Shown here: piece after piece, positions 3,161 to 44,699 of the stretch
Layout of the letters: each line of letters begins with the position of its first letter
How positions within the stretch are numbered: position 1 is the stretch's first letter
Origin: Squalus acanthias
Lineage: Eukaryota
Assembly: GCA_030390025.1 (NCBI GenBank)
Contig: CM059432.1
Coordinates: 4,836,001-4,900,000, forward strand
Direction: 5' to 3'
Length of the DNA: 64,000 bases
Made by a program: the position numbers and the translations under genes
The notes under the pieces: model-generated
Told to the model about the DNA's origin: nothing
Database searches by the model: none
The model's input: the letters and a program-made list of their open reading frames with translations, nothing else

Positions 3161-3920
3161 CTGTTGTAACATTAGTTCAGTAATCACCCTTAAAGCTTGC
3201 CAATGGCCAAACTTGTTAAAATGGCTATTTTAGCTTGTTAAAATTTACAGGGCTGTGGGGAAAGATCAGGACTGATTGGAGAGTTCCGCCAAAGGGGCAC
3301 GATGGGCCGAATGGCCTCCTTCTGTGCTGTATCATTCTGTGATTCTTGTATTGCCTCTACAGGCTTGTCATTAATCGGTAGAACGTCTCCAATATTTTGC
3401 TGCCCCCCCAGTTTTTGTAGAACTGCTATTCAACAACAACAACTTGCATTTACATAGCGCCTTTACCGTAGTGAAACGTCCCAAGGCGCTTCACAGGAGC
3501 GATTATCAGACAAAATTCGACACCGAGCCACATGAGATATTAGGACCGAGCTTGGCCAAAGAGGTCGGTTTTAAGGAGCGTCTTAAAGGAGGAGAGAGAG
3601 GGGCGGAGAGGTTCAGACAGGGAATTCCAGAGCTCGGGGCCCAGGCAGCTGAAGGCACGGCCGACAATGGTAGAGCGATCACAATCGGGCAGTGAGGTTA
3701 TTAAACGGCATAAACATCGCACTTGCTTTTTAATAATGGAAATGGACCCTTTCCGAGTTTTTCCTCAGCCGTGTTGCGCTATTAGATTAATCAGAATGCT
3801 AATTGGGCAGCAGGACGATGTCTTTGTGATTAATGCACCCTGTCTTTTGCACATGTTTTGAAATCAAAGTTTTGGAATATAATTATTCATTAAAAATATA
3901 TATCTGTTGTCCCATTCCAG

Positions 3921-4023
3921 GTGTATTCCCAGACTGGACAATGCTGTAAGAAAAGGTTTGAAAAAAAGAAGCTTGATGCAGTGGTTCATCCACAGATCTC
4001 CAAAGGGGAGATTGTTCTTGCAG
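3921..4023 (+). CDS. Desmoglein-like cadherin, probable exon 2 (prodomain start: VYSQTGQCCKKRFEKKKLDAVVHPQISKGEIVLA)
   Basis: Acceptor ttccag, donor gtaggc, 103 nt, phase 0 to 1. Splices in frame to the exon at 7701 (G+TG=Val). Resembles the first prodomain exon of classical cadherins and desmocollins. Confidence 0.75.
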
Positions 4024-4725
4024 GTAGGCCGTGCCTATGATATCAATCGTTAGAACGATTCCTTTTGGTTTAAGAGTCATACGACCAAGAGCTGGATGTT
4101 TTTGGTGTGTCTATAAATCTGCTGCCTTATACGTATTTTTTTTTTTTCTTGTACTACTGTTTAACGGGATAGGCTTTTGCCGTCGGTACTCGAGCAAGAA
4201 ATATATTGACGTATTGTCACTTCCATTGTACAGTGGAAATATAAATATCAGGACGTTCCTCTGAAGGGGAAAGTCAGGCTCCTTCCCTCTCCCATGGTAA
4301 CTGTCTGAGGCTGAGCCAGACCGTTGGCAAGCCTTGGTGTCGTATTTGACCCCGAGATGAGCTTCTGGCCATGAATCCGCGCCATCACCCAGAGGGTGGT
4401 GAACCTGTGGAATTCGCTACCACAGAAGGCTGTGGGGGCCAAGTCACTGAATATATTTAAGAAGGAGATAGATAGATTTCTGGACACAAAAGGCATCAAG
4501 GGGTGTGGGGAGAGAGCGGGAATATGGTATTGAGATAGAGGATCAGCCATGATCATATTGAATGGCGGAGCAGGCTCGAAGGGCCGAATGGCCGACTCCT
4601 GCTCCTATTTTTCTATGTTTCTATCACCAAGACCGCCCATTTCCACCTCGGTAACATCGCCCGATTCCACCTCTTGCCTCAGCTCATCTGCTGCTGACAT
4701 CCTCGTCCCTGCCTTTGTTATCTCT

Positions 4726-5082
4726 GATGTGGAGATGCCGGTGTTGGACTGGGGTGGACAAATGTGAGAAGTCGCACAACACCAGGTTATAGTCCAACAG
4801 CTTTATTTGAAATCACAAGCTTTCGGAGCGCTGCTCCTTCGTCAGGTGAAGTGAAGAGATGCATTTCGGCACAGCATATATAGTCAGAGAACACTGCCAG
4901 ATGATTACAGTTAAAGGGTAGTTGGAAAGATTAACTGTAATCATCTGGCAGTGTTCTCTGACTATATATGCTGTGCTGAAATGCATCTCTTCACTTCACC
5001 TGACGAAGGAGCAGCGCTCCGAAAGCTTGTGATTTCAAATAAAGCTGTTGGACTATAACCTGGTGTTGTGCGACTTCTCACT
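4726..5082. mobile_element. Palindromic PLE-A terminal insertion (inverted terminus with tail, plus direct terminus)
   Basis: Inverted arms of about 150 bp (4764-4914 and 4931-5081). The 3' end matches 58456-58542. TSD TTTGTTATCTCT at 4714-4725 and 5083-5094, inside an L2-like fragment. Confidence 0.88.
4996..5032 (+). ncRNA. Minimal hammerhead ribozyme (PLE-A); mirror copy on the minus strand at 4813-4849
   Basis: TCAC-CTGACGA-A-GGAGC-agc-GCTCC-GAAA-GC-TT-GTGA. Confidence 0.8.
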
Positions 5083-6514
5083 TTTGTTATCTCTAGACTT
5101 GACTATTCCATCACACTCCTGGCCGGCCTCCCATCTTCCACCCTCCGTAAACTTGAGGGCATCCAAAACTCTGCTGCCCCCGTGTCCTAACTCGTACCAA
5201 GTCCCGTTCACCCATCACCCCCTGTGCTCGCTGACTCTTCTTGTGGCAATTGCCAATTTAAGGTTCAGTATGTGCCCCCCCCCCCCTTTTTTAAAGGGGC
5301 ACAACCAATAAAGACTGTAACTTAAAAACATGTTAAAAGGAACCTTAACAAATCAAAATAAAATGTTATCCCCGGGGATGATGATGCACTCCAGTCCCTC
5401 CGGCGCCCACCGGTCACGGAAGGCCTCCAGCGCGCCGGCAGACACCACATGCTCCACCTCCAGGGGCACCCTGTGCTCGCTGACCTACATTGGCTCCCGG
5501 TCTGGCAACGCCTCTCTTTTAAAAATTCTCAACCTTCGTTTTCAAATCCCTCCATGGCCTCGCCCCCCTCCCTACTTCTGTAACCTCCTCCAGCCCTACA
5601 ATCCTCCGAGATCTCTGCTCTCCTCCAATTCTGGCCTCTTGCGCATCCCTGATTTTAATGGCTCCGCCATTGGCGGCCGTGCCTTCAGCTGCCTGGGCCC
5701 CGAGCTCTGGAATTCCCTCCCTAAACCTCTCCACCTCTCTCTCCTCCTTTTTAAGACGCTCCTTAAAACCTACCTCTTAGACCAAGCTTTTGGTCACCTG
5801 TCCTAATATCTCATTATGTGGCTCGGGGTCAAATTTTGTCTGATAATCGCTCCTGTGAAGCACCTTGGGACGTTTTACTACGTTAAAGGCGCTGTATAAA
5901 TACAAGTTGTTGTTGATGAGCCCATGCAGATGAAGTGTCCTTCCGGGGATCCCACAACTCCCGAAGGATCAGTGCTCCAGGGCATCATTGGGCGCAACCC
6001 CAGCCGAGTGGTTATTGCACTGGACTAGCAACACAGCGGTTGTGAGTTCAAATCCCAATGTAGCCGGTTGTAAATTGTTTTTACACAGAGTTTTGTGAGG
6101 CTGCGGAATTCACTGCCAAAGTTAAGGATTGAAGAAAAGACCGTATCGGCATTTAAGGATAGGTTAGATAGGTGGTTGAAGTGATACAGGAACAGGGAAG
6201 GAATGTAAGATTAGGACTACTGTTCATAGGGAGCATAAACACCAACGTGAACTGATTGGGCTGAATAGCCTCCCTTTGTGTCGTAATGTCTATGTAATTC
6301 TATGAATTCATTAAATTTGGTCATTTGTGGGCTGGCACCGTATACAATGAGCATAAAAGCCCAACTGCTTCACCAATATCCTTCAGGAAAGTGACCAGTT
6401 ACCCTTACCCGGTCTGGGGCCTACACGTGACTCCAGTCCCACACTACGTGGTTGCCTCTTAATGCCCTCAGTACAACTGGAGATGGGCAATAATGCCAAC
6501 ATCCTAAGAACAAA

Positions 6515-7150
6515 TCATAGAATGGTTACAGCACAGAAGGAGGCTCTCTGCAAGAGCGCTTCAGCTAGTCCCACTCCCCCGCCCTTTCCCCGTAGCCCTG
6601 CAAACTTTTTTCCTTCAGGTACTTATCCAACTCCCTTTTGAAAGCCACGATTGAATCTGCCTCCACCACCCTTTCAGGCAGTGCATTCCAGATTGTAACC
6701 ACTCACTGCGTAAAAAAGTTATTCCTCATGTCGCCTTTGGTTCTTCTGCCAGTCACCTTAAATCTGTGTCCTCTGGTTCTCGACCCTTCCACCAATGGGA
6801 ACAGTTTCTCTCTATCTACTCTGTCCAGACCCCTCATGATTTTGAATACATCTATCAAATCTCCTCTCAACCTTCTCTGCTCTAAGGAGAACAACCCCAG
6901 CTTCTCCAGTCTATCCACGTAACTGAAGTCCCTGGAATCATTCTCGTAAATCTTTTCTGCGCCCTCTCTAAGGCCTTTACATCCTTCCTAAAGTGCGGTG
7001 CCCAGAATTGGACACAATACCTCAGTTGAGGCCAAACCAGTGTTTTGCAAAGGTTCATCATAACTTCCTTGCTTTTGTACTCAATGCACCTATTTATGAA
7101 GCCCAGGATCCCGTGTGCTTTTTAAATGCTTTCTCAATTTGCCCTACCAC
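6515..7150 (-). mobile_element. CR1 3' fragment
   Basis: LEKLGLFSLEQRRLRGDLI peptide on the minus strand, with tail. Confidence 0.85.
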
Positions 7151-7295
7151 CTTCAATAATTTGTGCACAGGTCTCTCTGATTTTAAAAATGGGATCATTG
7201 CCTGCGAATTTTATGGGGAAATGTATCTATTTGACGTATGTGTTATTTTATTGGCACTGTTTTGGTTAAAAAGCCTAATGCATCTATCTATATAT

Positions 7296-7686
7296 GATGG
7301 AAGAATGAGAAGTGATCTCATTGAAACGTATAAAATTCTTAAAGGGCTTGACAGGGTAGATGCAGGGAGGATGTTTCCCCTGGCTGGGGAGTCTAGAACC
7401 AGGGGTCACAGTCTCAGAATAAGGGGTCGGCCATTTAGGACTGAGATGAGGAGAAATTTCTTCACTCAGAGGGTGGTGAATCTTTGGAATTCTCTACTCC
7501 AGAGGGCTGTGGAGGCTCAGTCGTTGAGTATATTCAAGACAGAGATCGATAGATTTCTTGGAATCAAGGGATATGGGGATCGGGCGGGAAAGTGGAGTTG
7601 AGGTCGAAGATCAGCCATGATCTTATTGAATGGCGGAGCAGGCTTGAGGGACCGTATGGCCGACTCCTGCTCCTAATTCTTATGTA
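7296..7686 (+). mobile_element. CR1 3' fragment abutting a cadherin splice acceptor
   Basis: RMRSDLIETYKILKGLDRVD peptide and CCTAATTCTTATGT tail. Confidence 0.88.
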
Positions 7687-7700
7687 TTTTTTAATTCCAG

Positions 7701-7912
7701 TGAAATTTCATGACTGCAATTTGGGAGAACACATTAAGCTAAGCACCAATGATAACAATTTCGGAATCTATTCGAATGGCTTTTTATATGCAACTCGTAC
7801 TCAAAACATTGACTCAACTTATGGCTTCAAAGTGTTGGCAATGGACCTGAAAACGCATGAGAAATGGAAGGTGAAAATCCTTTTAATCTCTTCAGCAAAC
7901 CAAGCAAATGAG
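7701..7912 (+). CDS. Desmoglein-like cadherin, probable exon 3 (prodomain: VKFHDCNLGEHIKLSTNDNNFGIYSNGFLYATR...KWKVKILLISSANQANE)
   Basis: Acceptor ttccag, donor gtaaga, 212 nt, phase 1 to 0. The V-x-F-x-D-C...D-x-x-F-x-I-x-x-x-G pattern matches the cadherin prodomain. Confidence 0.85.
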
Positions 7913-8159
7913 GTAAGAAATGTCTTTTCATAAAACTTATTTCTGAGTTTGATCATAGGGTATAAGTTGGATCATTTTTATAACTAATAATATCATTCTT
8001 CATACGTTCAACCTCAGATACAAATGGAAACCTTCTTGTAATCGCACACACGAATAGCCAATTCCACCCCACCCTCCCCATTCTTTTCCAGCCTGCGTCT
8101 CTCACTTCCTCCCATGCCTCTATGATGGCCTTTCCCCTTCATACTTGCATTTAAGGTCA

Positions 8160-10901
8160 AAGTCTATTATAAAAGATGTGACAACAGGGCACTTAGAAAA
8201 TATCAACGGGATTAGACAAGGTCAACATGGATTTATGAAAGGGAAATCGTGTTTGACAAACCTACTGGAGTTTTTTGAGGATGTAACTGGTAGAATAGAT
8301 AAGGGAGAACCAGTGGATGTGGTGTATTTGCATTTTCAGAAGGCCTTTGATAAAGTCCCACATAAGAGGTTAGTGTGCAAAATTAAAGCACATGGGATTG
8401 GGGGTAATATACTGGCATGGATTGAAAATTGGTTAACAGACAGGAAACTGAGTAGGAATAAATGGGTCTTTTTCGGGGTGGCAGGCGGTGACTAATGGGG
8501 TACCGCAGGGATCAGTGCTTGGGCCCCAGCTGTTCACAATATATATCAATGATTTGGATGAGGGAACCAAATGTAATATTTCCAAGTTTGCTGACGACAC
8601 GAAACTAGGTGGGATTGTGAGTTGTGAGGAGGATGCAAAGAGGCTTCAAGGCGATTTAGACAAGTTGAGTGAGTGGGCAAATACATGGCAGATGCAGTAT
8701 AACGTGGACAAATGTGAAGTTATCCACTTCGGTAGGAAAGACAGAAAGGCAGAGTATTATTTAAATAGTGATAGATTGGGAAATGTTGATGTACAGAGGG
8801 ACCTAGGTGTCCTTGTACACCAGTCACTGAAAGCAAACAAGCAGTTAGGAAGGCAAATGGTATGTTGGCCTTCATTGCAAGAAGATTTGAGTACAGGAGC
8901 AAGGATGTCTTAGTTATACAGGGCCTTGGTGAGACCACACCTGAAGTACTGTGTGCAGTTTTGGTCTCCTTACCCAAGAGGTGTAATAAAGGGCAGTTAG
9001 AAAGATTAACTGTAATCGTCTGGCAGTGTTCTCTGACTATATATGCTGTGCCGATATACATCTCTTCACTTCACCTGACGAAGGAGCAGCGCTCCGAAAG
9101 CTTGTGATTTCAGATAAAACTGTTGGACTATAACCTGGTGTTGTGCGACTTCTCACATTTACCCAATAAAGGATATAGTTGCCATAGAGAGAGTGCAGCG
9201 AAGGTTCACCAGACTGATTCCTTGGATGGCAGGACTGTTGTATGAGGAGAGATTGGGTCGACTAGGCCTGTATTCACTAGAGTTTAGAAGAATGAGAGGG
9301 GATCTCATTGAAACGTATAAAATTCTGACAGGGCAAGACAGACTGGATGCAGGGAGGAAGTTTCCCCTGGCTGGAGAGTCTAGAACTAGGGGTCATAGTC
9401 TCAGGATAAGGGGTCGGCCATTTACGACCGAGATGGAAAAGAATTTCTTCACTCAGAGGGTTGTGACTTTTTGGAATTCCCTGCTGAGGCTGAGATTGAT
9501 AGATTTTTGGACTCTAGGGGAATCAAGGGATATGGGGATAGGGCGGGAAAGTGGAGTTGAGGTCGAAGATGAGCCATGATCCTATTGAATGGCTCGACAG
9601 GATAAATCTTCATTTAGAAAGACATGGATTAATCAAGGACAGTCAGCATGGATTTGTTACGGGAAGGTCGTGTCTGACTAACTTGATTGAATTTTTTGAG
9701 GAGGTAACGAGGGTTGATGAAGGTAGTGCATTTGATGTAGTCTATATGGATTTTAGCAAGGCTTTTGATAAGGTCCCGCATGGCAGACTGGTCACGAAAG
9801 TAAAAGCCCATGAGATCCAAGGCAAAGTGGCAAGTTGGATCCAAAATTGGCTCAGAGGCAGGAAACAAAGGGTAATGGTCGAAGGATGTTTTTGTGACTG
9901 GAAGGCTATTTCCAGTGAGGTTCCGCAGGGCTCAGTACTGGGTCCTTTGCTTTTTGTGATGTATATCAATGATTTGGACTTGAATGTAGGAAGTATGATT
10001 AAGAAGTTTGCAGATGATACAAAAATTGGCCGTGTGGTTGATAATGAAGAAGTAAGCTGTAGACAGCAGGAAGATATCAATGGACTGGTCAGGTGGCCAG
10101 AACAGTGGCAAATGGAATTCAACCTGGAGAAGTGTGAGGTAATGCTTTTGGGGAGGTCTGACAAGGCAAGGGAATACACTATAAATGGTAGGATACTGAG
10201 AAGTGCAGAGGATCAGAGGGACCTTGGAGTGCATGTCCACAGATCCCTGAAGGTAGCAGGACGGGTAGATAAGCTGGTTAAGAAGGCATAAGGGATACTT
10301 GCCTTTATTAGCCGAGGCATAGAATATAAGAGCAGGGAGGTTATGCTTGATCTGTATAAAACACTAGTTAGGCCACAGCTAGAGTACTGCGTGCAGTTCT
10401 GGTCACCACATTACAGGAAGGATGTGATTGCACTAGAGAGGGTGCAGAGGAGATTTACGAGGATGTTGCCAGGACTGGAGAATTTTAGCTATGAGGAAAG
10501 ATTGGATAGGCTGGGGCTGTTTTCTTTGGAACAGAGGAGGCTGAGGGGAGACCTAATTGAGGTGTATAAAATGATGAGGGGCCTAGATAGAGTGGATAGG
10601 AAGGGTCAGTAACCAGATGGCATAGATTTAAAGTAATTGGTCGGTTTAGAGGGGATATGAGGAGAAATGTTTTCACCCAGACGGTGGTGACGGTCTGGAA
10701 CTCACTGCCTGAAAGGGTGGTAGAGGTAGAAACCCTCATCACACTAAAAGGCACTTGGATGTGCACTTGAAGTGTCGTAACCTACAAGGCTACGGACCAA
10801 GAGCTGGAAATGGGATTAGGGTGGAGAGCTCTTTGTCGGCCGGCATGGACAAGATGGGCCGAATGGCCTCCTTCTGTGCTGTAAATGTCTATGATTCTAT
10901 G
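8160..10901 (+). mobile_element. Two adjacent or nested decayed CR1 LINE copies (~8160-9593 and ~9595-10901)
   Basis: Frameshifted ORF2 peptides (QHGF..GKSCLTNL, VPQGSVLGP, FADD) and CR1 3' tails. Confidence 0.9.
8978..9158 (+). mobile_element. PLE-A terminal fragment with hammerhead (9071-9107), inserted in a CR1
   Basis: Near-identical to 4915-5081. Flanked by duplicated TTACCCAA (8970-8977 and 9159-9166). Confidence 0.85.
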
Positions 10902-12165
10902 ACAGGCCATATGGCCGACTCCTGATCCTAATTCTTATGCTCTTACGGGAGAGGCAAAAAAAAGAGAAAAAACCCGGGGCCAATAAGGGAGAAATAACAC
11001 TGGAAATATGCTCTCCGACCTCCTCAGGCGATCGAAACCAGTGAGGAGCTGAAATATGCAAAACTAAGGTGCTACAGCGCCCCCACTAGAGGGGAGGGTG
11101 TAATTACAGGGTGACAAGTTTACATAGCCAGGTAGCATTATAAATGTGGGTGTAAGGGGGTAGAATTAGGTATCCATTGCACCCATTTTTCATGCGTAAA
11201 ACAGGCCAATACTGAGTGATTTAGCAGTGGGATGGCCCGTGCCCAATCTGTGTGTGAACCACCTAAAACGGGCATTCGGCCCCCTTGCATATGATAATTA
11301 GGGGCCTGACGCCTGTTGAGTAACTGCTCTGTAAAATGAGTTTACGACGAGTGGTGCAGGTTTTGGGCCTGCCATGCTCAGCCGCACCTTGCTCGCTCAA
11401 ACCCCGCCCCCGAAACTAACCTTCGAGCTGAGGCAAGTGGCTCGACATTTGGCATTTAAAATTTTTTTTATTCGTTCCTGGGATGTGGGTGTCGCTGGCA
11501 AGGCCGGCATTTATTGCCCATCCCTAATTGCCTTCGAAGGTGGTGGTGAGCCGCCCTCTTGAACCGCTGCAGTCCGTGTGGTGAAGGAACTCCCACAGTG
11601 CTGTTAGGGAGGGAGTTCCAGGATTTTGACCCAGCGACGATGAAGGATCGGCCGATATATTTCCGAGTCAGGATGGTGCGTGACTGGGAGGGGAACTTGG
11701 AGGTGGTGGTGTTCCCACGCGCCTGCTGCCCTTGTCCTTCTAGGTGGAAGAGGTCGCGGGTTTGGGAGGTGCTGCCGAAGAAGCCTTGGCGAGTTGCTGC
11801 AGTGCATCTTGTAGATGGTACACACTGCAGCCACGGTACGCCGGTGGTGGAGGGAGTGAGTGTTTAAGGTGGTGGATGGGGTGCCAATCAAGCGGGCTGC
11901 TTTGTCCTGGATGGCGTCGAGCTTCTTGTAACGTGTGAGCTGCCTCGAACTCTCATTTCTATCCTTTTTCACAATCCCTCCTCTCTCCCTCATTCTATTT
12001 CCTTTCTCATCCCCTCTCATCCCCACCCTATCTCACTCTACCTCATTCCCCAATCTCTCTCTCGTTCATATTTTCCCCTCTCATTTCTTTCACTGTGTGT
12101 CTTTCATTCTATTTTCCTGTTTCTCTTTCCTGTTTCTCTCGCTCTCCCATTCTGCTCCCTCTTAC

Positions 12166-14260
12166 CGTTACGTGGAGAGACTGGAGAAGCTGGGGTTGTT
12201 CTCCTTGGAGCAGAGAAGGCCAAGAGGAGATTTGATAGAGGTGTTCAAAATCATGAAGGGTTTAGATAGAGTAAATAAAGAGAAACTGTTTCCAATGGCT
12301 GAAGGGTCGATGACCAGAGGACACAGATTTAAGGTGATTGGCAAAAGAACCAGAGGCGACATGAGGGGAAACTTTTTTTACGCAACGAGTGGTTAGGATT
12401 TGGAACGCGCTGCCTGATAGGGTGGTGGAGACAGATTCAATAATGGCCTTCAAAAGGGAATTGGAGAAATACTTGAAGGAGAAAAAATTGTTTACCAGTA
12501 CGTGTGCGTGTGCGTCTGCGCGAGACTGAAGATAGCGCGGGGTTGTAAGCCGTCGCACACGAGGGAATGCCTGATCGATTAATATAGTTTTCCAGGAATA
12601 TACATAAAACGCACTCGATCAAACCATTTTGCTTGCGAGTTCCTGAATTTTCTACGGGTACAGGCATTTGTTCACCTGGCCCCACGAATCTTTCAGAAAG
12701 TCGGTGCTGTTTAGTTTTTGTGATCGCCCTGACTACATTAAATCTGAAGACACGTGGAGGGGAGGGGAGGAGAAATGTATTCACTGAGAGTTGTGGGGAT
12801 CTGGAATGCTCGACCTGAAATTGCTGGTTAGGCCACAGCTGGGGTGCTGTGGACAATTCTGGGCACCACACTTCAGGAAAGATGTCCAAGCATTAGGAAG
12901 GGTGCAGAGGAGGTTCACCAGGATGTTACCAGGGAATGAGGAACTTCAGTTACGAGGAGAGGTTGGCAACGTTCGGACCTAATGGAGGTTTTCAAGATGA
13001 TGAGAGGTTTGGATCGAGTAGAGAGAGAAAAACTATTCCCTCTGGCGAGCGGGTCAATAACCAGAGGTCATAGATTCATAATCATTGGCAAAAGATCTGG
13101 AGGGGAGATGAGGAGAAATGTTTTCACTCGGAGAGTTGTGGGGATCAGGAACGCTCGACCTGAAAAGGTGGTGGAAGCTGATTCCATCAATAATGTGAAA
13201 AGGGAGTTGGACGGGTTCTGGAGGATGAGGAACTGACAGGGTTACGGACAAAAAGCGGGGGGGGTGTGGGACTGAGCACGACTGCTCTTTCAAAGAGCCG
13301 GCACGGGCAGTGACGGGCTGAATCTATGCAAGTTTCTATGATTCCATGACGTTTCTTTCAATTGTTTCCGCAGGTTATCAACAGCAGCCCTCCCGTCATC
13401 TATTTCCCAAAACGCTCAAGACGCCAGAAGAGAGAGTGGATCATTCCACCCGTTGCTGTACGGGAACATGAGCCTCCAATGAACAATCCGATTGCTGTGG
13501 TAAGTGACCCTTGCCTCGGCATGTTAAAATATTAACCGCATATGAGGCATTATTTGCGAAAATAATTTATTGGAGCCTCTTGAGAACCGTGGTTGAAATC
13601 ATGAGGTGCCCTTTAAAATGGAGTAAAACATCGAGGGGAAAACTGAAATCCTTTTTGGTTTGTTTATGAAAGCAAAAAAAAAAAATGGTTGCCTAGCAAC
13701 ATGTAACGTCAAACATGGTGAGACATTGGGTTAATAGAGGCAGAGAGTACAAAAGCAAGGACGTTGTGCTAAACCTTTATAAAAACACTGGTTCGGCCCC
13801 AGCCGGAGTATTGTGTCCAATCCTGGGCACCGCACTTTAGGAAGGACGTCAAGGCCTTGGAGAGGGTGCGGAGGAGATTTACTAGAATGGTTCCGGGGGG
13901 GGGGCGGATGAGACTCTTCAGTTACGTGGCGAGACTGGAGAAGCCGGGATTGTTCTCCTTACAACAAAGAAGTTTAAGGGGAAGATTTGATCGAGGTGTT
14001 CAAAATCATGAGGGGTTTTGATAGAGTAGATAAGGAGAAACTGTTTCCACTGGCAGGAGGGTCGGTAACCAGAGGGCACAGATTTAAAATCATTGGAGGG
14101 GCGGCGTGGGGAGAGGTAAAGAGACTTTTTTTTTACGCAGTAAATTGTTGTGATCTGGAACGCGCTGCCTGAAAGGATGGGAGCAGATTCAATAGTAACT
14201 TTCAAAAAGAGAATTGGATAAATACTCGAAGGGAGAAAAAAAATGCTGGGCTATGGGGAT
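12166..14260 (+). mobile_element. Several decayed CR1 3' fragments (~12166-12490, ~12750-13350, ~13730-14260) flanking a cadherin exon
   Basis: Repeated GDLIEVFKIM.G.DRV and TRGHRFK peptides. Confidence 0.8.
13374..13499 (+). CDS. Desmoglein-like cadherin, exon with furin site and mature N-terminus (PKRSRRQKR|EWIIPPVAVREHEPPMNNPIAV)
   Basis: Acceptor ccgcag, donor gtaagt, 126 nt, phase 0/0. RQKR convertase site, Trp2 and the NPIA motif are typical of desmogleins. Position and strand next to TTR match DSG2. Confidence 0.92.
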
Positions 14261-14692
14261 AGAAAGAAAGACTTGCATTTCTATAGCGCCTTCCACGACC
14301 ACCGGACGTCTCAAAGTGCTTTACAGCCAATGAAGTGCTTTTTGGAGTGGAGTCACTGTTGTAATGTGGGAAACACGATGTTATTTATATCAAAACCCTT
14401 CATGATTTTGAGCAGCTCTATCAAATCTCCCCTTAAACTTCTTTGCTCTAAGAGCAGGGGGGGAGTCGGACGAATGAGAGAGCTCTCTCAAAGAGCCGAC
14501 ACAGACACGATGGGCCGAATGGCCTCCTCCTGTGCCGTGCGGTTCTGTGACTCGAAGCACCGCAGGTACCCACAGAATTGCGTGCGACAAATAAAAGGGT
14601 GAACGCAATTCCTCTGTTAGAGAATGAATGTAATCATTTATTGTAGGTGGGTCCATGATGATTAAATGTCTTTTTATCATTTCTTCTCTTAG

Positions 14693-14848
14693 ATTAGGTC
14701 AGATTTTGAACTCAAGAAGCAATTAATCTACACGATTTCAGGACCTGGGGCTGACAGGCAGCCGGTCAATATGTTTGTAGTTGATAAACGTACTGGTGAA
14801 TTAAATATTACAGGGATGGTGGACCGTGAACAAAATCCACAATTCGTA
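14693..14848 (+). CDS. Desmoglein-like cadherin, EC1 exon (IRSDFELKKQLIYTISGPGADRQPVNMFVVDKRTGELNITGMVDREQNPQFV)
   Basis: Acceptor tcttag, donor gtaagt, 156 nt, phase 0/0. Contains the GELNIT and DRE cadherin motifs. Confidence 0.93.
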
Positions 14849-15327
14849 GTAAGTTTTTTAATTCATTTTCAAGTACCGCATGATTACGGTGATAATTTTG
14901 TGCTCGTTAACACGTGGTCCTTCTGTAAAAAAAAAAACCTTTCAAATATTTTAAACCATGAGAACGCGAGCGGATCATCGCACCAATCTCATTCGGTAGG
15001 CCCGTCCTCATTTGAAGGGTAGGCACGTCACGGAATCGGCACTCCGATGTTGTAACCCTGCTTTTGCTTCACAATCATATGAACACGTGATGGAAGAAGA
15101 GTTTTCTGTTCGATAATCGCTCCTGTGAAGCGCCTGGGAATATTTTACTATGTTAAAGGCGCTGGACAATTGCAAGTTGTTGCACGTTGAAAGTACAGAG
15201 AGTGGAATGTCATACAGAGAGGAACAGGAGGAGGCCATTCAGCCCCAAGAGCCTGTTCCGCCATTCAGTTAGATCAGGGCTGATCTCTATCTGCCCGCCT
15301 TGGTTCCGCAACGCTTAATACCCTTAC

Positions 15328-15724
15328 NNNNNNNNNNNNNNNNNNNNNNNNNNNNNNNNNNNNNNNNNNNNNNNNNNNNNNNNNNNNNNNNNNNNNNNNN
15401 NNNNNNNNNNNNNNNNNNNNNNNNNNNNNNNNNNNNNNNNNNNNNNNNNNNNNNNNNNNNNNNNNNNNNNNNNNNNNNNNNNNNNNNNNNNNNNNNNNNN
15501 NNNNNNNNNNNNNNNNNNNNNNNNNNNNNNNNNNNNNNNNNNNNNNNNNNNNNNNNNNNNNNNNNNNNNNNNNNNNNNNNNNNNNNNNNNNNNNNNNNNN
15601 NNNNNNNNNNNNNNNNNNNNNNNNNNNNNNNNNNNNNNNNNNNNNNNNNNNNNNNNNNNNNNNNNNNNNNNNNNNNNNNNNNNNNNNNNNNNNNNNNNNN
15701 NNNNNNNNNNNNNNNNNNNNNNNN
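15328..15724. other. Assembly gap (397 N)
   Basis: Run of N. The left flank is a CR1 tail and the right flank starts inside a SINE. Confidence 1.
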
Positions 15725-23606: not shown

Positions 23607-23743
23607 GATCATGGTGGCAGTGACAGAAAATGCCCGATCATTATCAAAGTCCTTAATGCCGTCAACGGAACACCAGCTGCTGACCTTCATGTGCAAATCC
23701 TCAGACGGAACGAGGACCAAACCTGGCAGGAGCTCAACGCTGG
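23607..23743 (+). CDS. TTR: Transthyretin exon 2 (DHGGSDRKCPIIIKVLNAVNGTPAADLHVQILRRNEDQTWQELNAG)
   Basis: Acceptor ctttag, donor gtgagt, 137 nt, phase 0 to 2. Aligns without gaps to vertebrate TTR (KCPLMVKVLDAVRGSPA). Confidence 0.95.
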
Positions 23744-23829
23744 GTGAGTACCACAGCTGGGTGACGGTTCCTCAGACTCCTCTACATCTGGACCTACACC
23801 CTTCTGGGTTTCTGTTTTCCAGGGATTAC

Positions 23830-24125
23830 AGTCGCACAGTGGTTTATGTTACTGGACCTGAGATCAAATCCCACCATGGCAACTGGGGAATTTAAATTCA
23901 GTTAATTCAATAAATCTGGAATAAAAAGCTAGTATCAGTAATGGTGACCATGAAACTACCGGATTGTCGTAAAAACCCACCTGGTTCACTAATGTCCTCT
24001 AGGGAAGGAAATCTGCCGTCCTTACCCGGTCTGGCTTATTTGTGACTCCAGACCCACAGCAATGTGGTTGACTCTTAACTGCCCCTCTGAAATGGTGATT
24101 CGTTCTCAAAAGGGCAATTAGGGAC
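23830..24125 (+). mobile_element. SINE-like repeat sharing its 3' tail (AGGGCAATTAGGGA) with the LINE family at 24740-25590; older copy at ~6000-6510
   Basis: TCAAATCCCA B-box-like motif, body shared with the ~6000-6510 copy, and LINE-derived tail. Confidence 0.6.
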
Positions 24126-24739
24126 TGATCTGTCGTAAATCAGACCAGTGCCCGTCCACATAGTGTCAGCCATGCCTCAGTGGGTCACACTCTCGCCACC
24201 GAGTCAGAAGGTCGTGGGTTCAAGTCAAACTTCAGAGACTTGAGCACATAAACCTAGGCTGACACTCCCAGTGCGGTGCTGAGGGAGTGTTGCACTGTCG
24301 GAGGTGCCGTCTTTCGGGCGAGACGTTAAACCGAGGCCCCGTCTGCCCCCCTCAGGTGGACGTAAAGGATCCCACGGCACCTCTCAGCTGCGCTGCTCCT
24401 GACCAGCACCAGGAATATTGGCCCCGTCACAGTCACTGGAAATGCACTGACTGAACAAAAACAAATCGATTGGCAGATAAAAAGTCAGGGTTAAGTAATT
24501 CATTGTGATTCCAGTTGCCAATTTGCACATCTTTCGCAACCATGTTACGCGATCCTTGATAGGATCAGACTAGGGAACCACATGGGAACAGGAGTAGGCT
24601 ATGCAAGCCCCTCGAGCCTGTTCCATCATTCAATTAGATCATGGCTAATCTGTGTCTCAACACCATCTACTCGCCAAGTTAATTTACTCTTCAGAACAGG
24701 AAGGCAAACCTTCAGCATTGAATACAAATACATAACGAA

Positions 24740-25590
24740 GCAGTCCATGCCCGCATGCAGCAAGGCCTGGATGACATTCAGGCTTGGGCTGATAAGTGGC
24801 AGGTAACATTCGCGCCACACAAGTGCCGGGCAATGACTATCTCCAATAAGCGAGCGTCTAACCCACCGCCCCTTGACATGCAACAGCATTATCATCGCCG
24901 AATCCCCCACCATCAACATCCTGAGGGTCACCATTGACCAGAAACTTAACTGGACCAGCCACATAAATACTGTGGCAACAAGAGTAGGTCAGAGGCTGGG
25001 TATTCTGCAGTGAGTGTCTCACCTCTTGACTCCCCAAAGCCTTTCCACCATCTACAGGGCACAAGTCAGGAGTGTGATGGAATACTCTCCACTTGCCTGG
25101 ATGAGTGCAGCTCCAACAACACTCAAGAAGCTCGACACCATTCAAGACAAAGCAGCCCACTTGATTGGCGCCCCATCCACCACCTTAAACATTCACTCCC
25201 TCCACCACCGGCGCACCGTGGCTGCAGTGTGTACCATCTACAAGATGCACTGCAGCAACTCGCCAAGGCTTCTTTGACAGCACCTCCCAAACCCCTTGAC
25301 CTCTTCCACCTAAAAGGACAAGGGCAGCAGGCGCATGGGAACACCACCACCTCCAAGTTCCCCTCCAAGTCACACACCATCCTGACTTGGAAATATATCG
25401 GCCGATCCTTCATCTTCGCTAAAATCCTTGAACTCCCTCCCTAACAGCACTGTGGGAGCACCTTCACCACATGGACTGCAGCGGATCAAGAAGGCGGCTC
25501 ACCACCACCTTCTCGAGGGCAATTCGGTATGGGCAATAAATGCTGGCCTTGCCAGAGACGCCCACATCCCAGGAGTGAATTAAAAAAATG
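24740..25590 (+). mobile_element. CR1/L2-group LINE 3' fragment. Related copies: 11465-11930(-), 18149-18360, 26250-26790, 32490-32740, 36238-36400
   Basis: [14 protein letters not shown] and YRAQVRSVMEYSPLAW peptides; shared GGGATGGGCAATAAATGCTGGCC tail. Confidence 0.8.
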
Positions 25591-25649
25591 CTAATATAAT
25601 TGTAAAACCACAGCTTTTAAATCTTTACTTCATTGCCTTTTTTTTGTAG

Positions 25650-25785
25650 TGTTACGGGACTGAATGGAGAAGTCCACAACCTGACCACCGAGGAGAACTT
25701 TCTTTCAGGAATGTACAAGGTCCACTTTAACACTGCTGATTACTGGAGGAGGCTGGGATTTATCCCCTTTCACGAATGCGCTAAT
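25650..25785 (+). CDS. TTR: Transthyretin exon 3 (VTGLNGEVHNLTTEENFLSGMYKVHFNTADYWRRLGFIPFHECAN)
   Basis: Acceptor ttgtag, donor gtaagt, 136 nt, phase 2 to 0. Contains the GExHxLTTEE and YW..LG..PFHE motifs. Confidence 0.96.
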
Positions 25786-27492
25786 GTAAGTTTCATTTTA
25801 ATTATTTTTCCAGTGTGACTCAGTGGGCAGCACTCTCTCTCTCTCACCTCTGAGTCAGAAGGTTGTAGGTTCAATAGTCCCACTCCAGGGGTTTGAGCAA
25901 AATTATCTAGGCTGATACTCCAGTGCAGTACTGAGGGAGCGCTGCACTGTCGGAGGTGCCGTCTTTTGGATGAGACGTTAAACTGAGGCCCCGTCTGCCC
26001 CCTCAGGTGGACATAAAAGATCCCATGGAACTATTTCGAAGAAGAGCAGGGGAGTTCTCCCCGGTGTCCTGGGCCAATATTTATCCCTCAATCAACATCA
26101 CTAAAAACAGATTGTGTTATGCAGAATTATGCAGTTTAAAGAATAGAAGTTGTACAGTAGAATTTCATGCATTTGCCTTCTATAAAAAAAACACTAGCAT
26201 TTATATAGCGCCTTTCACAGCCAATGAAATACTTTTTGAAGTGAATCAACATCACCTCCTGACTCCCCAAAACCTTTCCACCATCTACAAGGCACAATAC
26301 TTGCCTGGATGAGTGCAGCTCCAACAACATTCAAGAAGCTCGAAACCATCCAGGACAAAGCAGCCCGCTTGATTGGCACCCCATCCACCACCTTAAACAT
26401 TCACTCCCTCCGCCACCGGCGCACCGTGGCTGCAGTGTGTACCATCTACAAGATGCACTGCAGCAACTCGCCAAGGCTTCTTTGACAGCACCTCCTGAAC
26501 CCACAACCTCTTCCACCTAGAAGGACAAGGGCAGCAGGCGCATAGGAACACCACCACCTCCAAGTTCCCCTCCAAGTCACACACCATCCTGACTTGGAAA
26601 TATATCGGCCGATCCTTCATTGTCGCTGGGTCAAAATCCTGGAACTCCCTCCCTAACAGCACTGTGGGAGCACCTTCACCACACGGACTGCAGCGCTTCA
26701 AGGCGGCGGCTCACCACCACCTTCTCAAGGGCACCTAGGGATGGGCAATAAATGCCGGCCTTGCCAGCGACGCCCACATCCCAGGAACTAATTTTTTTTT
26801 TTAAACTCTCTCTATGTCTACTCTATCAAAACCTCTATGGTCACCCCTCAGCCTTCTCTTTTCAAGAAAAAAAGAGACCCAGCCTGTTCATCCTTTCCTG
26901 ATAGGTATAACTATCATTATTCAAGGGATAAGTGCATCAATATTTTAGTGTTTGTGGTACAGCCGTGCGTATGTTGAAGTTAAGCGTAGTTAAAGGTTGA
27001 CATTTGATTTTGATCCCTGGGATTCCGTTAGCTGGGGAACAAAGGGGCCTTATCCGAGCACTAATCCTGTTGGTTGCGGTTGTTTTTGTTGGCGTATCCC
27101 GCCGCCACACCCATTCCGGCACTGAACACTTTCTTCCACCTAGTTTGGATACAGTCAGGGACTTGTGCCAAGTAAGCCTCAAGTGAAGGACCTCAGAATG
27201 TTTAGCATTCCCTGAAACCCGGGTTCAACATCGCTCTTTTTTAAAAAAAAAATCTATAAAAAGTTCCATATTGTACAACGGCTAAACTGAATCCTCACTT
27301 CCCTTTATTCATTATGTACGAGTGATTTACGAGCGTTAAAATATTGGCATACAGCACTGTAGTCCATTAGGCCACCTGTACAATGGTCAAAGCTGATTAC
27401 TGATTAACTAGACCTCAAATAGCAGCAACAACACAATGTTATGGATACAAGAAGCTTATCGAGCATTCAAAACTGGAACTGAGCAGTTTCGT

Positions 27493-30055
27493 AGAATCAT
27501 AGAATGAGACAGCACAGAAGGAGGCCATTCAGCCCATCGTGCCTGTGCTGGCTCTATGAAAGAGCTCTCCAATTAGTCCCGCTCCCCTGATCTTTCCCCA
27601 CAGCCCTGCAAATTTTTCCTTTTTAAGTATTTATCCAATTCCCTTTTGAAAGTTACTATTGAATCTGCTTCCCCCACCCTTTCAGGCAGCGCATAACAAC
27701 TCGCTGTGTAAAAAAAAAAAAAAATTCTCATCTCCCCACTGGATTTTTGCCAAATCTCTTAAATCCATGTCCTCTGGTTACCAACCCTCCTGCCAGTGGA
27801 AACTGTTTTTTTCCCCATCTATTCTATCAAAAACCCCTCTATTAATTCTCCCCATAACCTTCTTTGCTCTAAGGAGAACAATCCTGGCTTCTCTAGTCAC
27901 TCCACATAAATGAATACCCTCATCCCTGGTACCATTCTGGTAATATCCTCTGCGCCCTCTATTGAACACAATATTCTGGGCTGAGGCATAACCAGTGAAT
28001 TATAAACGTTTGCCATAACTTCCTCGCTTTTGTACTCTGTGCCTCTATTTATAAAGTCAAGGATCCCGTATACTTTTATCACAGCCTCATCAACTTGTCC
28101 TGCCACCTTCAAAGATTTGTGTATTTGAACACCAGCTCTCAGTTCCTGCACCCCCTCTTTGAAATGGTACCATTTAGTTTATATTGCCTCTCCTCATTCT
28201 TCCTACGAAAATGCGTCAGTTCACACCTTCTCTGCATTAAATTTCATCTGCTGTGTGTCCGCCCATTTCACCAGTCTGTCCACGTCCTTCTGAAGTCTGT
28301 TGCTATCCTTCTCATTGTTTACTACATTTCCGATTTTCGTATCATCTGCAAACTTTGAAATTATACCCCCTATACCCAAGTGCAGGTCATTAATACATAT
28401 CAAAAATAGCAGTGGTCCTAATACCGACCCCTGGGGGACACCACCACACACCTCCCTCCAGTCTGAAAAGTAACTGTTCACCACTACTCTCTGCTTTCTG
28501 TCCCCCAGCCAATTTTGTAGCCACGCTGCCACTGCCCCTTTAATCCCATTGACTTCAATTCTCCGAACAAGTCTATTATGTGGCACTTTATCAAACCCCT
28601 TTTGAAAGTCCATATACGCAACATCAACCGCACTACCCTCATCAACCCTCTCCGTTGTTTCATCGAGGAACTCAACCAAGTTAGTCAGAGACGATTTGCC
28701 TTTAACAAATCTGTGTTGGCCGTCATCGATTAACCCATGTTCTTCCAAATTCATTGTGTCTCGGATTGTTGTCTCTAAAAGTTTCCCCACCACCGACCTT
28801 AGGCTGACTGGCCTGTAGTTGCTGGGTTTATCCCACTCCCCTTGTTTGAACAAGGGTGTAACATTTGCAGTCCTCCAGTCCTCCGACACCACTCCCATAT
28901 CCAAGGAGGATTGGAGGATTGTGGCCAGAGCCTCCGCAATTTCCACCCTTACTTCCCTCAGTAACATCCCATCCAGACCGGGTGACGTTTCTACCTTGAG
29001 GGCTGCCAACCATTTCGGTACCTCCTCTTTATCTATTTATATCCAATCCAAGTTCTCTACTCCCCTCCTCCTTTCAACATTGTAACATTGGCAGCATCCT
29101 CTTCTCTCGTGAAGACAGAAGCAAAGTGCTCATTTAGTATCTCAGCCGTGCCCTCTGCCTCCACAAGATGATTTCCTTTTTGTTCATTAATCGGCGCAAC
29201 CTTTCCTTTGACTGCCTTTTTACTCTTCATATGTTTATAAAAAAACTTTTAATGTTCCTTTTTATGTTACCCGCTAATCTTTTCTCATAGATTCTCTTTG
29301 CCCCTCATATTTCCCTTTTCAATTCTCCTCTGTACTTTCTGTATTCAGCTTGATTATCTACTGAATTATGAACCTGACATTTATCATAAACCTCCTTTAT
29401 CTGTTTCATTTTAACCGGGTAGCGCTCTCACCTTTGAATCAGAAGGTCATGAGTTCAAGTCCCGTCCCCAGAGAATTGAGCACATAAAGCTAGGCTGACT
29501 CTCCAGCGCAGGGCTGAGGGAGTGCTGCACTGTTGGAGGTGCCGTCTTTCGGATGAGACGTTAAACCGAGGACCCATCTGCTCTCTCGGGTTGACGTAAA
29601 AAATCCCATGGCACTAATTCGAAGAAGAGCAGGGGAGTTCTTCCCGGTTTCCTGGCCAATATTTATCCTTCAACCAACATCACTAAAGAAAAACAGATTA
29701 TCTGGTCATTGCTGTTTGTGGGAGTTTGCTGTGCGCAAATTGGCTGCTGCGTTTCCTACATCACAACAGTGACTACACTTCAAAAAGTGCTTCATTGGCT
29801 GTAAAGCACTTTGGGACGTCCTGAGGTCATGAAAGGTGCTATAGAAATGCAAGTTTTTCTTTTCTTTGTTTGAATATCTTTAGTCATCCAGGGAGCTTTA
29901 ACATTGGATGCCTTTCCTTTCCCCCTCGTGGGAATGTGTCTAGTCTGTACCCAAACTATCTCCTCTTTGAAGGGCTCCCATTGCTCATTTACTGTTTTAC
30001 CTGCCAATCTTTGTTTCCAATCCACCTGGGCCAGCTCCTTTTTCAACCCACTGAA
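27493..30055 (-). mobile_element. Decayed CR1 LINE (~2 kb) with a nested SINE at ~29417-29865
   Basis: The 262-aa RT-like ORF at 28221-29009 and flanking frameshifted ORF2 sequence. Confidence 0.88.
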
Positions 30056-30079
30056 AATACTCAACTGGAAGAGGGCTAA

Positions 30080-30605
30080 TCACACGCTCACTCAGACCTC
30101 ACCGTCCTCGGCCTCTTGCATTGTTCCACGGAAGCGCAGCGTAAGCTCCAGGAACAGCACCTCATCTTCCGTTTAGGCACTTTACAGCCTTCCGGACTCA
30201 ATATCGAGTTCAACAATTTCAGATCATAACCCCGGCCCCTACCACATATGTATACATTTTATCCACTCTTTTGGTCCGTGCCTTTTTCCTTTTTTTCTCT
30301 CTCTCCCCCCACGGCAGCTGTCTCTGATTCTGCCAGCATTTCACACCTTACCTTTTGTTTCTCAACCTGTCCCATTACCATCTCGCCTTGCCTTGAGCAT
30401 CTCTTAATGTCTCTACTCACTCAAGACCATCCCTTTTGTTCTTTTATTCCTCCCCCCAGCCTCCCCCTTGCATTTTTATCTGTTTATTTCTTGCTCTTTC
30501 AGTTCCGACGAAGGGTTTCAACCTGAAACGTTAACTCTCTTTCTCTCTCCACGGATGTTGCCTGGCCTGCTGAGTTTTTCCAGCGTTTTCTGTTGTTATT
30601 TCTAA
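30080..30605 (+). mobile_element. Penelope-like element family B, 3' end (GIY-YIG C-terminus and terminal repeat)
   Basis: Translates as HAHSDLTVLGLLHCSTEAQRKLQEQHLIFRLGTLQPSGLNIEFNNFRS*, similar to the end of the PLE-A ORF. Followed by a hammerhead-like motif (30501-30536) and the GATGYTGCCTGRCCTGCTGAG tail. Confidence 0.8.
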
Positions 30606-31084
30606 TTTCACCTTTGATTGTTCCTCATCCATTTCCATAGCTACTCTGAACCTAATAGATATTGTGATCGCTCTTCCCCAGATGCTCCCCCACTGAAACA
30701 TGCTTCACTTGCCCCACTTCATTCCCCAGAACTAGGTCCAGCACGGCTTCCTTCCTCGTTGCTCTGGAAATGTACTGATCAAGAAAATTCTCTTGTACAC
30801 GTTTCAGGAATTCCTCCCCCTCTTTGCTTTCAATAATCTGGGATTATTTAAATGGAAGAATTTCTGGATCTTTAAAAGATGTTTCTTTAAGATTTATAAC
30901 ATTGTGCGATCCATATGAACACTTACTGGAAGGTTCTTAAACTAAAATGTCTAATATTCTTTTGATGATCAACTTGAGTTAAAACACTGTGACCATCATC
31001 AACTAAGTATACTTTTTACTGCAATTCTGCTTTACATCTTTGCTGCACTTTGGGGAACATATAAAACCGTAGAACAGAAAACAA

Positions 31085-31326
31085 AAGCAAAAACACTGCG
31101 GATGCTGGAAATAAAAACAGAAAATGCTGGAAGTACTCAGCAGGCCAGGCAGCATCTGTGGAGAGAGACACAGAGTTAACGTTTCGGGTTGGTGACCTTT
31201 CATCAAAACTGGAAAAAGTTAGAGATGCAACAGATTTTAAGCAAGTGCAGGGGCAGGGAAAGGCAGGAGGGGACAAAAGAACAAAGGGGGAGTTCTGTGA
31301 TAGGGGGCAGCATCTGTGGAGAGAGT

Positions 31327-31366
<40 letters not shown>

Positions 31367-31975
31367 GAGTTAACGTGTCGGGTCCAGAAAAGCCCGTTTC
31401 TTCCAATACACCATGGCCTCCAACTAATCAAACCCAAAGTTTCTGAGGAAGGTGATTTTTCCACACCAGGCAAAACTTCCAAAATAATCAGCTTCTTCCA
31501 CATGTTCTTGCCACGCACTGAACAACCCTCCACAACCGATCCGTAACATCAGCAAAAATACTGCGGATGCTGGAAATCTGAAACATAAACACGGAATGCT
31601 GGAATTACTCAGCAGGTCGGGCAGCATCTGTGGAGAGAGAGAGAGAGAGAAACTAGAGTTAACGTTTCAGGTCGATGACCCTTCGTCAGAACTGCAAGAT
31701 GTTAAGAGCATAGGCCAGCCAGTCCCAAATTATCAGCATCTACATTTGGAATTACTGTTTAAAGGGTCAAATCTAATCTTTTTAGAACTAGGAAACTAAA
31801 AAGCAGCCAGTTACATATCAATGGGACGAAAGCAAAATACTGCGGAGACTGGAAATCTGAAATATAAACACGGAATTGCTGGAATTACTCAGCACGTCGG
31901 GCAGCGTCTGTGGAGAGAGAGAGAGAGAGAGAAACTAGAGTTAACGTTTCAGGTCAATGATCTACCATCAGAACG
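31085..31975 (-). mobile_element. Cluster of PLE-B terminal fragments in TTR intron 3
   Basis: Repeated AAATACTGCGGATGCTGG...GCAGCATCTGTGGAGAGA...GAGTTAACGTTTC units starting near 31085, 31306, 31550 and 31830. Confidence 0.75.
31657..31693 (-). ncRNA. Minimal hammerhead ribozyme (PLE-B)
   Basis: Minus strand reads AGTT-CTGACGA-A-GGGTC-atc-GACCT-GAAA-CG-TT-AACT. Confidence 0.78.
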
Positions 31976-32009
31976 GTTCGGTGATTTTTTTTTTCTCTTC
32001 TCGTTTCAG

Positions 32010-32114
32010 GTGGTTTTTCGAGTGGCCAGCTCCGAACATCATCACTACACTCTCGCACTTCTTTTGAGTCCTTTCTCCTACTCCACTACAGCAGTCGTCA
32101 GCAACCCACACTAG
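32010..32114 (+). CDS. TTR: Transthyretin exon 4, coding part ([34 protein letters not shown])
   Basis: Acceptor tttcag, stop TAG. The [13 protein letters not shown] terminus is TTR-type and lacks the YRGS motif of HIU hydrolase. Confidence 0.96.
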
Positions 32115-39330: not shown

Positions 39331-40105
39331 AGATTAACCCAAGCTAAACCCATTTTACTTTCAGAAAGTAAGTACTTTCCGAATCATAACTAGACGGCTA
39401 AGTGACTTGGCAGTGTATAACACTACTGTAATAAGGTATGATTTTAGCTGACAGAAACCAGACAGTATATTGCAATTCTTTCCATTATTCAGTATGGAAA
39501 GCAAATGATGTGTCTTAAAGACTATTTACATTTTGTTCTTACATGCCAAGTTACATACATATATACTTCCTTTTTAAAAGGAACATCACACAAATGCATC
39601 AAGTTCAATAGTATAAAAAAACGGAGTGGCAAAGTGCACAATTTTACAGTATATTTACAAATCCATAGCATTATTTCAAGTGGACCGTAAGCCTTCATTT
39701 TAGCTAAAAATACAATATGTTATGCAATACCTACAAATGGGAATTCTATTGGCTCTAACACCTTTGTACAGGAACAGCTGATCAGGACAAGAAAGCTAAT
39801 ACAATAATGTGAGGGCTTAATAATGAGAGTAGCCCTGCTTGTAAACCTCTTGATTTCAGGATGATGGCAGGTTGTCTTTCAAAATGCAGGATGAATTCAT
39901 TAGCAAAGCTAGTGCGCACACATGCAGGTACAATCAGCTGTTCAAAATTCGGGACTCATGCCGTCATTGAATCATCCACAGCTGAGGTGGTTTGGCTGTT
40001 CCTCAAGACCCTTAAAGCCCTTCACTGAACCGCCATAGAATAAAATACTCCGAAATCCATAATGTTCCAGGAAAGCTGTTAAAATTCAAGATGGTCCCAT
40101 CCTCT

Positions 40106-44078: not shown

Positions 44079-44511
44079 AACATGGGCATTGACCAGCTGG
44101 CCTGAATGGCCTGTTTCTGGGCTGTAATTTCTATGCAACTCTGTGCATTTACTCCCAACGACAACAAGATATCTTGGATGTATAACACTGCAGATAATCT
44201 TGGGTTACAGAGAAACTTTTAAGTCCTGACTAACCTAATTTCCATACAATAGGTTTATAGAAAGAAGGGTGAGCAAAAGTAAAAATTTAGCTTGAAAATT
44301 TTTAAGAATGGTGCAAAAATAGAACTTAAAAATTTCCACAAAGTTTACCGTGCAATTTCAGTACCTGCACTGTGCAGTTTTCTCAGTCCCTCTCCCACCG
44401 CCACCCCCCCCCCCCCCCCCGCCCCCCCCCCCAAAAACAACTTCAGGTTTTGCCCTCTAGAGGAAGACGTCCAAACTATAGGAGGTGCCAATGGATGGCG
44501 CAGATACTTAC

Positions 44512-44699
44512 ATGTACATGTACTTGTCCAGCTTTGATGCAAAATGCCGTGGCATCTGCCCACATCCGTAGTAGTTGCGATCACTTTCTGGTATGTGATC
44601 GACATCGTGGAAAACGAGGCAGTCCCAATCCAGATCTTTCATAGCCTCCATAAAGCCAACATTAAATAGCATTGCACGATTAAAGGGATAGTTACCAGC
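44512..44699 (-). CDS. B4GALT6: B4GALT6 exon 6 (AGNYPFNRAMLFNVGF...FHDVDHIPESDRNYYGCGQMPRHFASKLDKYMY)
   Basis: Acceptor tcccag, donor gtaagt, 188 nt. FNRA and DVD motifs. Confidence 0.97.

Follow-up and report, generated by a model that had tools for sequence, protein, structure and literature searches.

The window examined here, a stretch of 64,000 nucleotides (nt) of Squalus acanthias (contig CM059432.1 of assembly GCA_030390025.1; G000:C8:4836001-4900000), raises the question of whether a gene can be a desmoglein and at the same time encode the full cadherin prodomain found in desmocollins and type I cadherins and, if so, whether that domain was kept or acquired. We conclude that the window very probably encodes the N-terminal portion of a desmoglein of cartilaginous-fish type, and that its two-exon prodomain, with a predicted cadherin fold, is likely an ancestral trait of all desmosomal cadherins that likely disappeared once, on the stem of the bony vertebrates. 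An original prediction, made from the letters alone, had proposed a desmoglein in this ancestral state with later loss elsewhere, a proposal that trees, assembled contigs and domain distribution now support.

Four exons, numbered 2 to 5 in Table 1 and all bounded by AG and GT, splice into a single stop-free frame in which 125 residues precede EW and RRQKR begins at residue 121, the furin site and Trp2 following one another at 13419-13439. Splice ends, lengths and open frame thus confirm the predicted series of four in-frame exons with their phases. All four are collinear with a sawshark model named 'desmoglein-2-like' (P0001; one protein returned among 7 candidates in a single-exon protein search), at 67-79% identity and 76% for exon 3. 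Exon 5 matches Pfam Cadherin (E 4e-5), its top solved-structure match being human desmoglein-3 (E 1e-14). A scan with the exon-1 peptides of orthologues found exon 1 ahead of the window, with a score of 35 against 10 for the runner-up, and its inclusion brings the prepro region to 141 amino acids.

The region ahead of the furin site is recognised as a cadherin prodomain by profile and by predicted fold. Exon 3 alone passes the Pfam Cadherin_pro profile (PF08758, cut-off 23 bits) at 27.6 bits (E 3.4e-6), the profile being the one that the original prediction had named for a check of the spliced peptide; exon 2 alone gave no Pfam match. The same profile scores 52.8 bits on P0001, 39.7 on a ray and 27.4 on a chimaera. 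Eleven shark and ray prodomain stretches align with two invariant cysteines. Positions 2-113 of a profile built on these stretches meet the prodomain of N-cadherin (1OP4) at E 6e-18; the profile also meets the C-cadherin precursor at E 8e-16 and, in human DSG2, the furin site alone. The fold was predicted on the orthologous stretch of P0001 rather than on the window's own spliced peptide: the model has seven strands, with a block-wise predicted local distance difference test (pLDDT) score of 74-95 over residues 1-90 followed by a low-confidence linker; Foldseek ranks 1OP4 first, and a wide structure search returns cadherin repeats at Z 10-12 (best Z 12.1, root-mean-square deviation 2.4 over 91 residues). 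The prodomain is predicted, on this model, to fold as a cadherin-type beta-sandwich.

Contigs assembled from public sequence runs were compared at the splice sites, four of 15 listed runs being aligned to window positions 3850-14900; such contigs show the presence of a splice form, not its share among isoforms. One 465-nt contig (run X2) spans 3921-4020, 7698-7910 and 13372-13493 with 0 mismatches, and a contig from a second study (run X4) spans 3920-4020 and 7698-7904, likewise with 0 mismatches. Allowing for shared letters, two of the three predicted junctions are thereby supported, 4023/7701 in two studies and 7912/13374 in one, while 13499/14693 is unbridged among the contig rows listed. 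The contigs contain both prodomain exons, the skipping of which the original prediction had set down as evidence against itself. Runs aligned to the exon 1 region gave a single contig, upstream of the start codon.

To which family the mature protein belongs was judged from two trees, their rooting on type I cadherins being assumed. The first covers extracellular cadherin repeats 1 and 2 (EC1-2; 45 rows, 236 columns, 74 mature residues from the window). The second has 742 columns and 27 rows and joins the window in one row with exons for P0001 residues 359-882, which encode EC3 through the start of the cytoplasmic tail and lie on an unplaced 128-kb scaffold (C93). The coelacanth desmocollin model, with a wrong-looking EC1-2 stretch, was kept in the first tree, where it has a long branch, and masked in the second. 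In the EC1-2 tree the window residues fall among shark paralogue A, the cartilaginous-fish desmogleins form a clade (support 100/98) whose sister is the bony clade (93/86), and the two join at 94/88; in the longer tree the respective values are 100/99, 100/99 and 99/98, and the prodomain requires one change of state. A profile of bony-desmoglein tails scores 25-68 bits on eight of nine paralogue-A tails and 6.7 on the ninth, shuffles reaching at most 3.5; the coelacanth desmocollin ends 3 residues past the catenin-binding segment, without a repeat tail. P0001 has the four to five EC repeats, the single transmembrane segment and the catenin-binding segment of a desmoglein; of the window gene itself, the EC1 part lies in the window, while C93 carries the stretch from EC3 as far as the transmembrane segment.

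From the tree placement and the repeat tails of its orthologues it follows that the window gene is, by sequence, a desmoglein; on the same footing, it and a second shark gene, paralogue B, are co-orthologous to all bony-vertebrate desmogleins and not to DSG2 alone. The mature region sides with desmogleins, and not with desmocollins or type I cadherins, in these phylogenies, the kind of test that the original prediction had called for on EC1. Less fortunate was its reading of the mature N-terminus as a mosaic with a classical-like WIIPP, for this start is ordinary: amphibian, teleost and sturgeon desmogleins begin EWIIPP or DWIIPP, and those of lungfish EWIVPP. Two other identities were considered and rejected, namely a one-to-one DSG2, since the two shark paralogues fall together in a clade of their own, to which the bony desmogleins as a whole are sister, and a desmocollin, since the mature region groups apart and the orthologue tails are long against the short desmocollin tail.

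The distribution of the domain follows the same division. Among 120 of 935 matches listed, PF08758 is present in 20 of 20 cartilaginous-fish desmoglein-type rows from 16 genera (the chimaera model among them starts inside the prodomain) and in 0 of 20 bony-vertebrate desmoglein rows, in which the prepro region measures 30-58 amino acids in 19 of the 20 sampled and 82 in the other. The PF08758 flag also stood on many FAT/CDH23-like rows, and it was therefore rechecked by hmmscan with cut-offs. Independently of this, the best 150 of 169 matches to the catenin-binding segment supplied 33 more long proteins whose mature start could be recognised. Among these, a ray desmoglein and a coelacanth desmocollin carry the prodomain, and the other 31 score at most 2 bits, three being too truncated for a verdict; the prodomain profile used here came from shark proteins, and for those it is circular. 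Counting every named desmoglein found in sharks, rays and chimaeras, 21 of 21 carry the prodomain, and a Pfam scan of nine bony proteins (two lungfish, two sturgeon, two teleost, coelacanth, bowfin and platypus) found it in 0 of 9. The survey of other chondrichthyan and basal bony-fish desmogleins that had been suggested thus places the prodomain in all of the cartilaginous-fish and none of the bony-vertebrate desmogleins sampled. As a separate observation, sturgeon models from two species (P0126, P0273) run from a signal-peptide-like stretch directly into the Trp2 motif without a basic furin site; going by these automatic models, sturgeon desmogleins may be without any propeptide.

Loss in bony vertebrates would have been easy because exons 2 and 3 together make a 315-nt module with phase 0 at both ends: removing or shortening them would keep the frame, and the furin-site exon would remain to encode a short propeptide. 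Excerpts of PMC3268089 (all papers cited here were consulted in part) give human and mouse DSG2 a 36-nt exon 2 at the prodomain-exon position and zebrafish Dsg-alpha none. The idea that this mini-exon is a remnant was examined on 17 proteins of tetrapods, lungfish and coelacanth: when set against shark exon-2 starts, the 12 residues at its position rank 1-9 among 21-42 windows, but with scores of -9 to +1. By a narrow balance of judgement, we favour the wider proposition that all cartilaginous-fish desmogleins keep a folded prodomain and that its loss is a single rare change marking the bony vertebrates, the two exons being reduced to a mini-exon in lobe-fins and removed in teleosts, with the furin step also dropped in sturgeons.

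Points that weigh against retention followed by a single loss are taken up here together with the alternatives that they would favour. The reduced states of bony desmogleins differ, from the 36-nt exon of human and mouse DSG2 through its absence in zebrafish Dsg-alpha to the sturgeon models without a furin site; the coelacanth desmoglein model is N-terminally partial, and the named-protein sample is without bichirs, gars, paddlefish and cyclostomes. An ancestral prodomain might thus have been lost more than once in bony vertebrates, or survive in a lineage outside the sample (bichirs or gars, for instance), a possibility that we consider unlikely given that bony desmogleins form one clade (100/99), that lungfish (with two paralogues), sturgeon, bowfin, teleosts and tetrapods are all without the domain, and that a prodomain-profile search of limited reach has three bony proteins among its 21 matches, namely two domain-less desmogleins and one cadherin-1-like protein. 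A different history, in which the short propeptide came first and the adjoining desmocollin supplied cartilaginous fishes anew with the two-exon module by exon shuffling or conversion, draws on the position of that gene, about 210 kb upstream on the opposite strand, and on the frame symmetry of the module. However, over their second prodomain exon shark desmogleins are no closer to their own desmocollin (30% mean identity) than to an unlinked type I cadherin (30.5%), and prodomain and gene trees agree, desmogleins and desmocollins being set against type I cadherins and the shark desmocollin joined to that of coelacanth (98/94); forcing shark desmoglein and shark desmocollin together gives a p value of 0.047 in the approximately unbiased (AU) test, a marginal rejection on 65 columns. 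Regain would moreover cost a loss and a gain against one loss, and we regard it as very unlikely.

The trees leave some room for doubt about the family itself. A clade of shark desmogleins with desmocollins is borderline in the AU test on 742 columns (p 0.049) and unrejected on EC1-2 (p 0.11), as is a grouping with type I cadherins (p 0.08), and for comparison the trees had two desmocollins and between three and six type I cadherins, and neither a cyclostome nor a type II outgroup. Exon 5, too, has the 156 nt of desmocollins and type I cadherins, where human DSG2 has 162 nt. That the shark genes are a separate desmosomal-cadherin lineage nearer to desmocollin is nevertheless the least probable of the alternatives, and by far too improbable for us to adopt: desmoglein monophyly reaches 99/98 in the long tree, the bony-desmoglein tail profile recognises eight of the nine paralogue-A tails, paralogue B has the 162-nt exon, and a distinct desmocollin gene lies in the same cluster. 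A further difficulty is that comparison with P0001 found no desmoglein exon after 14848 within the window, that exons 6-9 and the last exon of the window gene were not found in the assembly, and that the tail could be examined only in orthologues because that last exon is absent. No read or contig directly joins the window and C93 pieces, no near-identical overlap places C93 within the gap, and that the runs behind the spliced contigs are RNA is a guess, none of those listed being recorded as such. The window locus might then be a truncated duplicate or pseudogene, with the C93 exons belonging to another copy. Against this, the break coincides with the N-run; the window and C93 pieces cover separate parts of the protein, are both stop-free and share one identity profile (with Pristiophorus A 85% for the window piece and 80% for the C93 piece, with the genome's own paralogue B 64% and 53%); and contigs in two runs extend 349 and 178 letters past exon 5 in non-intron sequence. 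We hold a truncated copy to be highly improbable.

With an intact desmoglein that retained its prodomain as the preferred reading, a course of maturation may be proposed. Prodomain removal frees Trp2 of cadherins for strand swapping. On the model of N-cadherin and DSC2, removal of the signal peptide (encoded by exon 1 and the start of exon 2) would take place in the endoplasmic reticulum, and the prodomain would fold, probably with a disulfide between the two invariant cysteines, hold the mature N-terminus so that the Trp2 strand-swap is blocked, and probably help export; a furin-type convertase would then cleave RRQKR in the late Golgi, releasing an adhesive EC1. The excerpts consulted report that desmoglein precursors are cleaved by furin-type convertases at RQKR (PMC3468437), that the DSC2 prodomain is required for transport with C32 critical, and that DSC2 prodomain variants block surface transport (PMC10235514).

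The gene lies in a cluster (Table 1) in which the desmocollin on the minus strand is followed by the window gene (4.83-4.85 Mb) and TTR (4.86 Mb), both on the plus strand, and which agrees with the order CDH2 - DSC - DSG - TTR - B4GALT-like that we take to be the human one. The predicted position, that of DSG2 upstream of TTR on the same strand, accordingly holds in order and strand, not as a one-to-one DSG2, and the closeness of the two genes spans a gap of 397 N. We infer that this gap conceals the rest of the window gene and probably paralogue B. The prodomain exons of paralogue B, of 106 and 206 nt, have the same phases as those of the window gene, and the second scores 22.1 bits in Pfam, slightly below the cut-off of 23; its exon 1 was not found, nor was the first prodomain exon of the genome's own desmocollin. 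Exon 6 of paralogue B has 144 nt against 145, one base short in an A-run, which is likely an assembly error. EC4 in the window gene's 3' part contains a glycine run, in frame and more than 25 residues long; the sawshark orthologue has a shorter run, and a glycine-rich stretch is described for zebrafish Dsg-alpha in the excerpts of PMC3268089.

Table 1. Features of the window (positions without prefix), of the same contig (C8) and of the unplaced scaffold (C93)
Feature	Location	Strand	Length	Phase	Remarks
Exon 1	G000:C8:4832468-4832515		48 coding nt		ATG to GT donor; 3.5 kb ahead of the window
Exon 2	3921..4023	+	103 nt	0/1	end of signal peptide, Cys-Cys pair, first prodomain strands
Exon 3	7701..7912	+	212 nt	1/0	bulk of predicted cadherin-fold prodomain, second conserved Cys
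Exon 4	13374..13499	+	126 nt	0/0	linker, RRQKR (13419-13433), mature N-terminus with Trp2 (13437-13439)
Exon 5	14693..14848	+	156 nt	0/0	mid EC1 with DRE calcium motif
N-run	15328..15724		397 N		likely scaffold gap in place of the rest of the desmoglein gene
Transthyretin (TTR) exons 2-4	23649..32087	+			matches 23649-23744, 25645-25794, 31911-32087; synteny marker
Two tandem-repeat arrays	37489-39390 and ~40850-41810				produce long spurious open frames
Glycosyltransferase family 7 exon	44511-44726	-			Pfam 78 bits; likely B4GALT6, from its position after TTR
Long frame	55699-58242	+			reverse-transcriptase and GIY-YIG-like motifs, one stop near 57541; presumably a Penelope-type retroelement
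CDH2-like gene	C8:3.29-3.32 Mb	-
Desmocollin	C8:4.60-4.63 Mb	-
Window-gene exons for P0001 residues 359-882	G000:C93:104704-124214	+
Glycine run in EC4	C93:107290-107627	+
Paralogue B	G000:C93:38835-88525	-			second desmoglein; two prodomain exons

These findings suggest that cartilaginous-fish desmogleins break the short-propeptide rule and date one difference between desmogleins and desmocollins: the two families would have split first, and only afterwards, around the time when bony vertebrates arose, would the prodomain have been shed. The shark proteins also offer natural constructs for asking whether the prodomain is an aid to folding and export or a mere latch on Trp2. If the loss was indeed single and its reduction graded, bony and cartilaginous desmogleins would form a natural series bearing on the purpose of cadherin prodomains and on why desmocollin, but not desmoglein, needs one. 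Our full-text searches, read as listings and abstract starts, brought up no paper on prodomains in cartilaginous-fish desmogleins, although an earlier mention is possible; the consulted parts of PMC10235514 and PMC3468437 state the rule contrary to the shark state, and in those of the review PMC6944264 the words shark, cartilaginous, lamprey and prodomain do not occur.

Compared with known systems, the window gene shares with bony-vertebrate desmogleins (human DSG1-4, zebrafish Dsg-alpha) a sister-clade relationship, the RQKR furin site, Trp2 and the place in the gene cluster, together with, in its shark orthologues, the repeat-unit tail. It departs from them in its long prepro region with Cadherin_pro and in its extra exon, their propeptide being given as 21-26 amino acids in the excerpts of PMC3268089 and PMC3468437; the short propeptide, which the shark gene lacks, describes bony-vertebrate desmogleins without defining the clade. 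With the desmocollins (DSC1-3) it has in common the two-exon prodomain of phases 0/1 and 1/0, followed by the furin-site exon and the 156-nt exon (PMC3268089, Table 2), and the cysteine pair, which matches C32/C57 of DSC2 by position (PMC10235514); exon phases in the desmocollin and cadherins of its own genome equal those of the window gene. Desmocollins differ in that their mature region groups apart, starts RW..LP and ends in a very short tail, and in that the shark desmocollin is a separate upstream gene on the other strand. The prodomain of type I cadherins (N-cadherin 1OP4; PF08758) is the closest match in both profile and Foldseek searches, though identity over the second of the prodomain exons is no more than 19-33%, and it is borne here by a desmosomal cadherin.

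Closest of all are the database 'desmoglein-2-like' models of sharks and rays (P0001, P0002 and others), direct orthologues that are 76-85% identical over the window's mature part and already include the prodomain under automatic names, some of them wrong. Two shark desmogleins, P0003 and P0004, are labelled cadherin-4-like and cadherin-2-like, probably because of the prodomain, and such names may have hidden the pattern. Among type I entries, a bat 'cadherin-1' model (P0012) has its prodomain-EC1-EC2 block in three tandem copies, either a real duplication or an annotation artefact. The shark desmoglein amounts to an evolutionary correction rather than to a new kind of system, and automatic annotations already contain its prodomain.

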